DNA of 31,048 bases. Source: a virus. Its lineage: Duplodnaviria > Caudoviricetes. The translations under genes were made by a program, and so were the position numbers. The notes under the pieces were generated by a model, which saw only the letters and a program-made list of their open reading frames with translations, was not told the DNA's origin and did not search any database. Position 1 is the stretch's first letter. The number at the start of each line of letters is the position of its first letter. Of the stretch, positions 3,617 to 30,966 are shown in pieces. The DNA is taken from IMG/VR virus record IMGVR_UViG_3300043443_000278, positions 1-31,048 of that record. One strand, written 5' to 3'.

Positions 3617-4295
3617 TGTACATCAACTTCTTAAATTCTTGTTCAATCGTTTGCATATACTTTGCATCTAGAAGTTTAATATTTCTTCTAGATTCGTTTA
3701 GTTCTACCTCATAATCATAATAACTGATTGCTTCTAGATAAACAGTTTGTGTTACGGTCGTGCCGTCGTCAAATGTTTTTTCATAAGATTCTGCTGCTAC
3801 AGGATATATTGTTCCTAGAGTTACATTTGGAGTTGCTGTGATTGCTCCTGTCGTGTAATCTGCAGTATAACCAGAAACAGAAAATTTTTCTGTTGTTCTT
3901 GCGATAATTATTCCATACTGGGTTATCGTTTTCTCTACAACTTTTCTAGTAAGATACTTTGTAGATAAAGCGACGCCAATATTAGCCAACCCATGCTTAG
4001 ATAAAATGTATTTTTCTAAAGAGTTGCTAGGCAGAGGAAACTCGTATTGAGCGTTATACAGTTTGTTGAACAGTAAAACAACCCAATGACGATTTGGGTC
4101 GCCATACAACTTATGCGCAATAATTTCTGGGGTATCGCCGTCTTGTAGTTGATACTCATATGCAATTGCAGTATTTTCAGAAACTTCTTTTAGGAAAGCC
4201 GAACGCTGTAATATGTTTGTGACAAGTTGAGACGATGCGGCTGCATCATCGAAGTTATAGTTAATCTTGCCAAAGAAAGAAAAATATCCAGCCAT
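3609..4295 (-). CDS. gp53: Baseplate wedge subunit gp53
   Basis: YF..F..I.Y N-terminus, LysM-like DGDTPEIIAHKLYGDPNRHWVVLLFN, and C-terminal SYYDYEVELNESRRNIKLL. Confidence 0.9.
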   Translation of the reverse strand: MAGYFSFFGKINYNFDDAAASSQLVTNILQRSAFLKEVSENTAIAYEYQLQDGDTPEIIAHKLYGDPNRHWVVLLFNKLYNAQYEFPLPSNSLEKYILSKHGLANIGVALSTKYLTRKVVEKTITQYGIIIARTTEKFSVSGYTADYTTGAITATPNVTLGTIYPVAAESYEKTFDDGTTVTQTVYLEAISYYDYEVELNESRRNIKLLDAKYMQTIEQEFKKLMYNG

Positions 4296-14531: not shown

Positions 14532-14741
14532 TTAGACAGGACGTTGTCTAGCGAACCAGTATGCTAGAATGACTCCAACGCCCGCAGTAACGACACCAAA
14601 CAATGCAGCAATGGTGTCTTTCCACTCTAAGGAAACAGAAACATTCCCAGTAAGGAACATCATAAGAATAGTGAAATAACCAATAATGAATAGTGCGCTC
14701 AATCCAACTTGCGCGTATGCTACTAACTTTTGATTATCCAT
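14532..14741 (-). CDS. Small two-TM membrane protein, holin-like
   Basis: Two hydrophobic segments ending ...VILAYWFARQR; directly upstream of the wall hydrolase. Confidence 0.55.
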   Translation of the reverse strand: MDNQKLVAYAQVGLSALFIIGYFTILMMFLTGNVSVSLEWKDTIAALFGVVTAGVGVILAYWFARQRPV

Positions 14742-14759
14742 TCTTTCTCTCTGTAGTTG

Positions 14760-14798
14760 AAAAGTGGTAGGTTTATTCTGTTACCAAGAAAACCTACC
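14760..14798 (-). terminator. Terminator-like hairpin ending the tmRNA coding piece
   Basis: GGTAGGTTT...AAACCTACC stem followed by ACTTTTC on the minus strand. Confidence 0.65.
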
Positions 14799-14948
14799 GA
14801 AAACTCTGGAAAACTACACCGCTATTAAGCGGCTAGTGCCATGTCGTAAGTGCTATCGTTTGCATTTACTGTTTTTGCGCTGATTAAGTCAGTCGCCTCA
14901 CTGGTAGCCTCTAGGTTATTACTCACCCTGTCGAAACTGGTCACCCCC
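14760..14948 (-). ncRNA. ssrA: Two-piece (permuted) tmRNA, coding piece
   Basis: Begins GGGGGTGACCAGTTTCGACAGGG (tmRNA 5' end), then a pk1-like TGAGGCGACTGACTTAATCAGCGC. Resume context AGTAAAT-GCA; tag ANDSTYDMALAA-TAA-TAG at 14825-14863. The 3' end is approximate. Confidence 0.92.
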
Positions 14949-14949
14949 A

Positions 14950-15030
14950 TCATAAAGATTGTCCGACACCTTTAAGTGCCTCTGCTAACATTTCAATAAA
15001 CGTTAGAAACTTTTCTTTTAGTTTCTTCAT
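14950..15030 (-). CDS. 26-aa amphipathic peptide in the tmRNA intervening segment
   Basis: AAGG-N5-ATG, MKKLKEKFLTFIEMLAEALKGVGQSL*; fills 81 of the 93 spacer nt. Confidence 0.55.
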   Translation of the reverse strand: MKKLKEKFLTFIEMLAEALKGVGQSL

Positions 15031-15041
15031 AACAACCTTTA

Positions 15042-15105
15042 TGGTGGAGGTGGGGGGAATCGCACCCCCGTCCAAGATGCCTTTAGTTAAAGGTTTACTA
15101 CCATT
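15042..15105 (-). ncRNA. ssrA: Two-piece (permuted) tmRNA, acceptor piece
   Basis: ...GGAC GGGGG TGCGATT CCCCC CACCTCC A CCA: T-arm plus a 3' acceptor strand that pairs with GGGGGTG, giving G3.U70, discriminator A and an encoded CCA. The 5' end is approximate. Confidence 0.9.
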
Positions 15106-15110
15106 ATTTT

Positions 15111-15362
15111 TTAAAATAGTCCTAAGAACCTGTGAGCAAGAGCAGCGCAGACGCCACCAGCAACAGTCACTAGGAAGTCCCAATAATCGCTAGTGCCATG
15201 TCCGTGAGCATCATCCCATTCTTTCCAAGCAGCAATTACGATTACTCCAATAATTGAAATTGCAGGAAAGTATGGAAACAACGTTGCTACTAAAGCCCAA
15301 CCGCCGATAAAGTGGAATGCCTTATCAACGGGAATAGACTTTAGTGTTTCACGGACGCCCAT
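15111..15362 (-). CDS. Small membrane protein (DK..HF...KE..D...D motif; VanZ/YfiM-like)
   Basis: Start at ATG 15362 with a GAGG RBS; three hydrophobic segments. Confidence 0.6.
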   Translation of the reverse strand: MGVRETLKSIPVDKAFHFIGGWALVATLFPYFPAISIIGVIVIAAWKEWDDAHGHGTSDYWDFLVTVAGGVCAALAHRFLGLF

Positions 15363-15738
15363 TGCTGTATCCCTCATTATACGCTTCTTCTGCCTTCGCG
15401 TCAAGTTCTTCCTCAACACGGAGCATACAACCCTTGACCCACTGAGTAGTCAAACGCTTGCTGTGCGCGTATCGCTCAGGAACACGGTTCTCGCAATATG
15501 CCTTGATGTTGCTGCGACGTTCTTGAGGGGACTTGCTATCTGCGATAGCGTATCCAATCAACCCACCTACAACAGCAGCACCAGCAATCCAAGCACCACG
15601 ATGACTACGGTTGTTTCTTTCGTGATGATTGTCTCGATGCTCATGGCGATATTCTTCACGATGATGCCGCCCATCAGCGACGGCAGTCGTAGAGAATACA
15701 CCAATGCTAATCAATCCAACTAAAATTTTCTTAAGCAT
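15349..15738 (-). CDS. Exported His/Arg-rich protein with glycine zipper
   Basis: Signal peptide MLKKILVG...TAVA, an HHREEYRHEHRDNHH tract and GAAVVGGLIG; GGAG RBS. Confidence 0.7.
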   Translation of the reverse strand: MLKKILVGLISIGVFSTTAVADGRHHREEYRHEHRDNHHERNNRSHRGAWIAGAAVVGGLIGYAIADSKSPQERRSNIKAYCENRVPERYAHSKRLTTQWVKGCMLRVEEELDAKAEEAYNEGYSNGRP

Positions 15739-29994: not shown

Positions 29995-30084
29995 TGGCGG
30001 ATGTGGTAGGATTCGAACCTACGGATGGTTTCCCATCGACAGTTTTCAAGACTGTTCCATTAAACCAGGCTCTGGCACACATCC
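29995..30084 (-). tRNA. tRNA-Ser(TGA)
   Basis: Cloverleaf with loop CTTGAAA, long variable arm, discriminator G and CCA. Confidence 0.95.
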
Positions 30085-30091
30085 ATTAAAT

Positions 30092-30166
30092 TGGCTGAGG
30101 GACTAGGATTCGAACCTAGGTTCATGGAGTCAAAGTCCATTGTCCTGCCAGTTAGACGATCCCTCA
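30092..30166 (-). tRNA. tRNA-Gln(TTG)
   Basis: Loop CTTTGAC, U1-A72 pair, CCA encoded. Confidence 0.95.
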
Positions 30167-30176
30167 ATATGCAGTA

Positions 30177-30205
30177 ATTATAAACTACAGATTCTCAAAA
30201 GTCAA
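30177..30205 (-). promoter_or_regulatory. Sigma70-type promoter upstream of tRNA-Gln/Ser
   Basis: TTGACT-N17-TATAAT. Confidence 0.8.
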
Positions 30206-30621
30206 GTCTGTACTGGGGGCGGGTCGTCTGATTGTTTTTTTGACATTTGGTCTAAGACCTTTTTGCCTGCACCGCAAACGGCTTGCGCAATATTGGAGGC
30301 AAGAGTACCACCTTCAAATACGAAATCAATCTTGCCCTGAACGTTGTTGCCCATGTCAACCATCATAAGTTGACCTGCCTGCCGTTGGCAATTGTTTATG
30401 CTTACCGCAATCTTCACAAAATTGTAAGTTGGCTTCCCGTCATAGTGCGTGCGCCACTGGACAATCCAATACGGTTCATTTTCGCCCTTGATTACATCAA
30501 GTGAACCATTCTTATATTCCCAAACCATGCCGTCAGGCATCTTGGTAAATGTTGTCCAAGGACTTTCTTCTGCTGTAGCCAGCGAAGGAAAGAGGGCTAA
30601 TGCGGCAATCAATTTCTTCAT
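30202..30621 (-). CDS. Exported hypothetical protein within the tRNA cluster
   Basis: True start MKKLIAALALFPSLATAE (signal peptide) at 30621 with an AAGGA RBS; two Cys. The longer ORF-track frame merely crosses tRNAs. Confidence 0.75.
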   Translation of the reverse strand: MKKLIAALALFPSLATAEESPWTTFTKMPDGMVWEYKNGSLDVIKGENEPYWIVQWRTHYDGKPTYNFVKIAVSINNCQRQAGQLMMVDMGNNVQGKIDFVFEGGTLASNIAQAVCGAGKKVLDQMSKKQSDDPPPVQT

Positions 30622-30638
30622 AAAGATCCTTAATAAAG

Positions 30639-30714
30639 TGGAGCGGATGATGAGACTCGAACTCACGACAACTTCCTTGGCAAGGAAGAACTCTACCAAC
30701 TGAGTTACATCCGC
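30639..30714 (-). tRNA. tRNA-Gly(GCC)
   Basis: GCGGATG acceptor, loop TTGCCAA, discriminator U, CCA. Confidence 0.95.
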
Positions 30715-30719
30715 GTAAA

Positions 30720-30794
30720 TGGTAGCAGGAACGGGACTCGCACCCGTGACCCCCGGATTATGAGTCCGGTGTTCTGCTGCTGAACTATCCTGCA
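30720..30794 (-). tRNA. tRNA-Met(CAT), initiator-like and atypical
   Basis: Loop CTCATAA, U1.U72 mismatch, CCA; T-loop TGCGAGT and a D-loop lacking GG. Confidence 0.85.
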
Positions 30795-30800
30795 ACTGTC

Positions 30801-30876
30801 TGGTACCTCGTGACGGGTTCGAACCGCCGACATTCGCCGTGTAAAGGCGACACTCTACCAACTGAGTTAACGAGGC
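30801..30876 (-). tRNA. tRNA-Val(TAC)
   Basis: Loop TTTACAC, standard arms, CCA. Confidence 0.95.
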
Positions 30877-30891
30877 ATACATTCTATATAG

Positions 30892-30966
30892 TGGAGTTGC
30901 TGACAGGATTTGAACCTGCGTGAAACTGATTTGCAGTCAGCTGTCTAACCACTCAACCACAGCAAC
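30892..30966 (-). tRNA. tRNA-Cys(GCA)
   Basis: Loop CTGCAAA, discriminator U, CCA. Confidence 0.92.

Follow-up and report, generated by a model that had tools for sequence, protein, structure and literature searches.

What a two-piece tmRNA carries in the segment that it loses on maturation is the question raised by a 93-nt spacer in a phage genome. The spacer of such tmRNAs is regarded as discarded and is skipped by gene callers. The initial annotation had read this one as a nested gene, a small mRNA for an amphipathic peptide that would form one unit with the tmRNA and depend on its maturation. The window, which is the whole stretch of 31,048 nt that was analysed, is a 31-kb virus record (IMGVR_UViG_3300043443_000278) with T4-like genes. 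Its ssDNA-binding protein (gp32) is closest to those of Methylophilales phage Melnitz and marine cyanophages (58%), and DNA near-identical to the window is found in freshwater metagenomes.

A permuted tmRNA gene was called on the minus strand at 14734-15134 (ARAGORN), with the tag ANDSTYDMALAA. It scores 145.5 bits with RF04321 (tmRNA_permuted; gathering threshold 47) and 119.3 bits with RF01850 (threshold 84), beta_tmRNA (RF01850) being the best subtype model. As expected of a permuted tmRNA, it has a CCA end upstream of G1, a 7-bp acceptor stem with a G3-U pair, and a tag frame with its stop. The ends of the intervening sequence (IVS) are the expected sites of RNase P and 3' nuclease cleavage. 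The features of the locus are the following:

15376..15404, minus strand: sigma-70-like promoter, 11/12 match (promoter scan)
15042..15102, minus strand: acceptor piece of the tmRNA, with the T arm and the 3' acceptor strand (RF04321 alignment start at 15102; ARAGORN)
15045-15042, minus strand: ACCA end of the acceptor piece
14949..15041, minus strand: IVS, 93 nt, expected to be excised as in the known two-piece form (PMC11915505)
15031..15041, minus strand: 5' arm of the closing stem (11 bp), also a weak Shine-Dalgarno (SD)-like leader (fold; SD energy)
14950..15030, minus strand: ORF of 26 codons, MKKLKEKFLTFIEMLAEALKGVGQSL, and UGA; amphipathic helix, net charge +2
15026-15005, 15004-14987 and 14980-14965: three predicted hairpins inside the ORF (fold)
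14953..14963, minus strand: 3' arm of the closing stem, made of the final ORF codons (fold)
14949..14952, minus strand: UGAU tail, which holds the stop codon and the conserved four bases facing ACCA (a pairing read off the sequence), directly before G1
14760..14948, minus strand: coding piece of the tmRNA from G1, with a 3' hairpin (ARAGORN, Rfam)
14863-14825, minus strand: tag frame ANDSTYDMALAA

The promoter is the one site found by a scan for which 1.4 would be expected by chance at its loose threshold. Behind it stands an 83-codon gene for a hydrophobic protein (15362-15111, minus strand) whose end is 9 nt before the tmRNA, and the promoter (15404-15376) would drive both this gene and the tmRNA precursor as one transcript. 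Small hydrophobic-protein genes are present on both sides of the tmRNA (15362-15111 and 14741-14532, minus strand) and a cell-wall hydrolase gene (PF07486; 14519-13926, minus strand) lies two genes downstream; all three are kept in the close relative L300. Elsewhere in the window, a cluster of six tRNA genes was observed at 29995-30966 on the minus strand (Cys, Val, Met, Gly, Gln and Ser), in which a protein gene separates Gly from Gln. Two other candidates were rejected, namely a terminator-like match at 14833-14818, which is the hairpin at the stop codons of the tag, and a 77-codon TTG frame across the acceptor piece, which overlaps the structured tmRNA.

The layout claimed for the spacer was borne out. 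Between the CCA (end at 15042) and G1 (14948), positions 15041-14949 comprise an 11-nt leader, an AUG at 15030, 26 codons, a UGA at 14952-14950 and one U. An ATG-opened and closed ORF of at least 26 codons was obtained in 0.26% of 20,000 dinucleotide shuffles (p about 0.003), its stop in the window being supplied by the conserved tail and therefore partly dictated in its position by RNA structure. The spacer is letter-identical in contigs from four sequencing runs in four further studies, which excludes an assembly artefact.

The amphipathic character of the peptide was confirmed as well, with a hydrophobic moment of 0.50 for the whole peptide at a best angle of 100 degrees (p=0.0006 versus residue shuffles); a weaker test on the best 18 residues gave p=0.047. 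AlphaFold returned one helix with a pLDDT of 89, a model of little information made from a single sequence with four extra upstream residues. No family was found for the peptide in Pfam, PHROGs or PDB sequences, and its exact sequence is absent from 15 billion predicted proteins, as expected for an uncalled 26-mer. In the same way, Rfam gave no family besides tmRNA at gathering score in the window, spacer included. The peptide resembles delta-toxin/PSM-type or membrane-targeting helices in its length of 24-26 residues, its single hydrophobic face, its Lys-rich start and its net charge of +2. It would most likely bind membranes as a surface helix. Its role can only be guessed at, lysis timing and exclusion being two examples; the cell-wall hydrolase gene is two genes downstream.

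A closing stem that was overlooked in the first reading explains where the ribosome-binding site (RBS) and the stop are found. The spacer folds into 11 closing base pairs and three inner hairpins (z=-4.7). An RBS does start right after the CCA as had been claimed, but it is a weak SD (-3.8 kcal/mol, while 22 genes of the window span +0.2 to -9.7) and it is fully paired as the 5' arm of this stem. The stop is likewise at its claimed place, 1 nt before the expected RNase P cut, but it belongs to a UGAU tail that non-coding spacers have as well as coding ones; in the unbiased sample, 32 of the 43 distinct spacers with a length of at least 40 nt carry this tail. Since both positions are accounted for by the stem and the tail, they are not independent evidence of coding.

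The stem is widespread. Among 86 families of long phage spacers, its arm positions are paired in 90% of cases versus 60% with shuffled partners, through many pair types, and at least six of the expected closing pairs are found in 79 families. Stem-closed structured spacers of 88-92 nt were also observed in permuted tmRNAs of Microvirga spp. (L555, L574, L577, L592, L600, L620, L625, L628), and these Microvirga-type cellular spacers end in a UGAU-type tail as phage ones do. In the window spacer, the interior hairpins are more stable than those of synonymous recodings (2.1%) and shuffles (0.8%). An interior z below -3 was found in 4 of the 12 ORF-class spacers tested; structure is thus compatible with coding.

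The content of the spacer changes quickly between relatives. The viral scans covered 120 of about 900 stretches, 120 of about 240, and then 58, 18 and 114 (32 true permuted genes), and the metagenome scan covered 118 of about 280 loci, among which 31 are true permuted tmRNAs; all scans together gave 304 permuted loci and 200 distinct spacers. In the unbiased sample, spacer lengths range from 4 to 229 nt without modulo-3 preference (25/28/22). The tmRNAs with the nearest tag have spacers of 4, 15, 44, 55-56, 66, 87 and 98 nt with unrelated content. L300 is syntenic with the window (neighbours 73-97% identical) and its tmRNA body is identical at 179 of 186 positions (96%) with a spacer of 4 nt, and L303, identical at 181 of 186, has an 87-nt structured RNA as spacer. 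The peptide is therefore dispensable for this tmRNA. Homologous spacers had been expected to keep the series of RBS, ATG and stop; on the contrary, those at the orthologous site vary in length and are unrelated in content, and close relatives do not keep the ORF there as they would for a leader peptide or an attenuator. The best reading is that the spacer is a swappable slot in which the peptide gene is a dispensable passenger and not part of an obligatory RNA-plus-peptide unit. With tmRNAs 96-97% identical carrying 4-nt or non-coding spacers, the strong form of the initial claim, a fixed unit, fails, and what the sequences support is likely a hidden small gene whose expression would be bounded by tmRNA maturation.

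Sequencing runs with small shares contain contigs with tmRNA parts of relatives. In X20, the one true RNA run, the only such contig is joined across the spacer. Splicing was considered and rejected for it: the contig differs in 10 further letters, its spacer measures about 4 nt, and it was read as coming from a relative.

Structured RNAs are frequent occupants of the slot. Several structured non-coding spacer families recur (L002; L001/L007/L008/L017/L086/L088; L170/L303; L097/L311; L053; L126; L140; L259) and are candidate new RNAs. Examples of such cargo are a family of 88 nt, represented by 11 distinct sequences, and a family with a small three-way junction. T-loop-like motifs, possibly of tRNA-like cargo, were seen in three spacers (L202, L258, L260). 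The spacers of 20 related loci had no match to any Rfam family at E<=0.5.

ORFs are another kind of cargo. Four scans without ATG in the pattern, three of which demanded the UGAU tail, yielded 76 families besides the window. In 24 of these families a frame starts at +8 to +24 and stays open as far as the last 15 nt or past the end, versus 8.3 +/- 2.6 expected. The excess comes from AT-rich families, in which 19 of 26 carry ORFs versus 1.3 expected, while the others have 5 of 50 versus 7.0 expected, the cut-off (GC<0.36) having been picked after seeing the data. The window spacer falls within this class (start at +11, GC 0.31, stop at -1). SD-like 5' arms were observed in 13 of the 24 ORF families and in 5 of the 52 others (p=6e-5), which suggests an adaptation of the 5' arm to a second function as RBS. 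Moreover, 11 other families, each represented by one hand-picked pair, gave a pooled pS of 0.54 versus a pN of 0.24, with seven pairs significant alone and four not. By these sequence comparisons, ORF cargo is real as a class and is under purifying selection. The cellular control is thin: of 120 loci, 16 proved to be true permuted tmRNAs, most of them from one Microvirga-like family, and these held 1 ORF versus 4.2 expected.

The ORFs differ in the way they end. Among 28 ORF families, 13 stop at the tail UGA as the window does, 5 have their stop 9-12 nt ahead of it, and in 10 the frame continues past G1. Seven of these last 10 are in phase with the expected RNase P cut (L146, L184, L285, L457, L504, L506, L536), and the piece excised from through-G1 spacers would be a non-stop message open to tmRNA tagging. 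For two families of spacer peptides, free homologs (about 50% identical) lie directly upstream of a tmRNA (L028, L204, L177), hinting that cargo may be captured from a neighbouring gene. Two 93-nt spacers (L189, L236) have a Cys-rich frame from +3 that may resemble a fragment of bacterioferritin-associated ferredoxin.

A single homolog of the window peptide was found, by tblastn, in Synechococcus phage BUCT-ZZ01 (ON615601.1; host in the record, Synechococcus elongatus PCC 7942). It shares 17 of 23 residues with the window peptide, at E=0.02 in 2.3 Gb, or 7.5e-7 per genome. Unannotated in the record, it takes up a spacer of 89 nt (116474-116562 of ON615601.1) that extends from the CCA of a tRNA-like element, which is called at relaxed thresholds only and not at others, to tRNA-Leu(UAA), with its ATG at +9 and its stop 5 nt before G1. 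It is about 300 nt downstream of the phage's own permuted tmRNA, whose spacer differs. A chance match is unlikely, given the E-value together with the same start, end and kind of junction, and given that 7.3 Gb of plasmid DNA held no homolog at E<=10. The other searches were negative: no homolog in 49 of the 50 tmRNA-bearing virus records searched, BUCT-ZZ01 being the exception; two peptide patterns in IMG/VR with 0 matches and with 6, all in unrelated frames without tRNA context; and no homolog in the 31 true permuted tmRNAs among the 118 metagenome loci. Blastn with the window spacer misses the homolog and gives 8 short matches, the best of them inside an unrelated CDS.

The 23 aligned codons comprise 9 identical ones, 8 silent differences and 6 residue changes, i.e. 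a pN of 0.14, a saturated pS of 0.82 and a pN/pS of 0.17, a ratio that is biased because the pair was found by a protein search and pS is saturated, so that a chance match would look alike. Among the changes, A to F and G to L widen the hydrophobic face, and the homolog peptide is amphipathic too (p=0.002). On the contrary, the RNA folds differ and the three hairpins are not kept, even if in both spacers a helix finishes 4 nt ahead of G1. In the homolog an SD is missing (+0.4 kcal/mol), the start is not covered by a closing stem, and the spacer costs 0.9 kcal/mol to open. The conservation of the peptide in a spacer outside any tmRNA suggests that the product matters and not the act of translation, and such a close match between tRNA genes of a cultured phage suggests that phages likely use RNA-processing spacers as swappable slots for tiny genes. 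As judged from sequence, the window ORF is likely a nested small gene, probably selected, for a predicted membrane-binding peptide. In the same BUCT-ZZ01 sequence (L317), positions 3909-3991 comprise a tRNA-like element that is unannotated, has a long D loop and shows a CAA anticodon by folding, and a tRNA with a CUA anticodon, a possible amber suppressor, was seen at 2153-2228; the fetched stretch of the record annotates none of its tRNAs nor its tmRNA. Inter-tRNA spacers were rare in the collection, with 4 only in 305 loci.

How the gene would be expressed can be drawn from the folding energies, which are equilibrium estimates and not kinetics. The predicted cost of opening nt 1-20 of the spacer is 3.5-8.3 kcal/mol while synthesis has reached 30-85 nt, 10.6-13.5 when the 3' arm emerges, 18.1 in the folded precursor, in which the acceptor stem can form, and 10.5 in the released spacer. 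The RBS of the ORF, a weak SD, is thus predicted to be open only before stem closure. The start site would stay fairly open until the 3' arm is made, and ribosomes would load while the RNA is being transcribed. Once at the start or the stop codon, a ribosome would sit over the acceptor strands, and with such footprints translation and tmRNA folding would be mutually exclusive on one molecule. Each transcript would then be a message first and a tmRNA precursor afterwards, until the stem closes, RNase P and the 3' nuclease cut, and the message is silenced; peptide output would be a short and low pulse. Whichever cargo is present, the closing stem would hold the acceptor helix in register, together with the cut sites for RNase P and at the 3' side, and the same cassette could occupy any CCA-spacer-G1 junction of a tRNA-type precursor.

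The reading that we prefer, to which we give slightly more than an even chance, is therefore that of a stem-closed swappable slot whose gene, dispensable although likely real, encodes a predicted membrane-binding peptide, is likely translated while the RNA is nascent and is likely silenced by stem closure and excision. That the ORF is translated in some form, all readings pooled, appears quite probable. The claim of a nested gene tied to maturation thus survives in part: the gene stands on the homolog, the ORF excess of its class and pN<pS, and a physical tie is suggested by an RBS and a stop within the closing stem and by footprints that would overlap the acceptor stem, but the fixed unit is lost.

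The ORF could also be silent cargo, a captured gene or a relic that is untranslated here while the spacer persists as a folded and cleanly excised, or structured, RNA. This is unlikely in our estimation, even if it would account for the burial of a weak SD behind 18.1 kcal/mol in the precursor, the z of -4.7, an interior more stable than 98% of synonymous recodings and the absence of the ORF from L300. Most long spacers are indeed non-coding (52 of 76 families), and an untranslated ORF in an IVS has a precedent in S23p of the Coxiella 23S rRNA, according to the part of PMC4990558 consulted. However, frame, start and stop are intact and invariant across four studies, and the homolog retains the peptide and not the fold. 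A strong interior fold is found in a third of the ORF-class spacers tested (4/12 with z below -3), and for other cargo ORFs pN is lower than pS within the spacer itself.

Two more explanations keep translation but give it another place. If the stem-protected 93-nt RNA were stable and served as the message, maturation would switch the peptide on and not off. The fall of the opening cost from 18.1 to 10.5 kcal/mol after excision and its value of 0.9 for the BUCT-ZZ01 spacer go in this direction, as do the paired ends, which would resist exonucleases, the many structured spacer RNAs, which make sense only if the released piece lasts, and the stop placed just inside the cut in 13 of 28 ORF families. 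Yet 10.5 kcal/mol is still a strong block, the SD would be at the very 5' end, the 10 of 28 families without a stop before G1 would release non-stop messages, and the Coxiella IVS is described as rapidly degraded once excised in the consulted part of PMC4990558; we hold this explanation for rather improbable. The initial annotation had also proposed that translation gates maturation, the ribosome on the ORF timing or licensing tmRNA folding and processing. The geometry speaks for it, as the footprints at start and stop would overlap both acceptor strands and the SD and the stop coincide with the closing stem. Nevertheless, near-identical tmRNAs do with 4-nt or non-coding spacers, the peptide is conserved in a spacer that belongs to no tmRNA, and two other cargo families are also free genes just upstream of a tmRNA, which makes gating very improbable.

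With the preferred reading of a slot translated before stem closure, the spacer becomes a hidden and fast-turning place in which common freshwater and marine phages carry small genes and structured RNAs that are uncatalogued. The same transcript would act as a message and then as an RNA precursor, with the closing stem as the switch. The homolog in BUCT-ZZ01 is new in that it brings a metagenomic pattern to a cultured phage, in which it becomes experimentally testable, and it joins tmRNA spacers and inter-tRNA spacers as one class of coding space. A wider proposal, which we consider doubtful, is that T4-like aquatic phages have a general cassette system at tRNA-processing junctions, where host RNase P and 3' nucleases would release stem-closed mini-RNAs from any CCA-spacer-G1 site, be it in a tRNA cluster or in the permuted tmRNA. 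Some of these would be structured RNAs and others mini-mRNAs with translation set by maturation, the window peptide, membrane-active, would be a mobile cassette found in both types of slot, and cassettes without a stop would be sensors tagged by the tmRNA that releases them.

In T4/T5-like phages, small ORFs and stable RNAs are found between the genes of tRNA clusters. Such inter-tRNA cargo lies between a CCA and the next G1, is exposed to the same enzymes and is the site of the BUCT-ZZ01 homolog; in the window, by contrast, both flanks belong to one RNA and the RBS and stop of the ORF form the closing stem.

Permuted phage tmRNAs such as those of Melnitz and aquatic myophages (PMC9004378) have the same order of acceptor piece, CCA, IVS, G1 and coding piece, with a tag ending in ALAA and a T4-like aquatic phage as carrier. 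The consulted part of that paper reports 53 two-piece tmRNAs among phages, 50 of them aquatic, and there the spacer is unmentioned and the word 'intervening' absent. In PMC11915505, as far as consulted, the IVS is absent from mature tmRNA, one IVS holds a tRNA-Ala and another a repetitive element, and the words ORF or open reading frame are absent from the main text. In parallel, phage ssrA genes are only listed in the part consulted of PMC4131195, and two-piece tmRNA is mentioned in passing in those of PMC10085705 and PMC3978253. In such literature the IVS is thus described only as absent from the mature RNA, whereas the window IVS carries an ORF. No paper on ORFs in tmRNA spacers was found, within a coverage that leaves out most subscription papers, so that absence from print is unproven.

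Another likeness is arfA, whose message loses its stop by cleavage and is under the control of trans-translation (PMC8012679). It would apply to the through-G1 spacers, with seven families in phase at the cut, and not to the window ORF, whose stop is inside the spacer. In terms of mechanism, the nearest precedent is S23p, an apparently untranslated ORF in the IVS of 23S rRNA (PMC4990558). Both are ORFs inside a piece of a stable-RNA precursor that is excised without ligation. According to the same source, S23p is a single conserved protein family in an IVS excised by RNase III, apparently not made in vivo and decaying. The window ORF differs in lying within a tmRNA and in having no Pfam match, and the tmRNA slot differs in its tRNA-type ends and in the dozens of unrelated tiny ORFs and structured RNAs that exchange within it under purifying selection.
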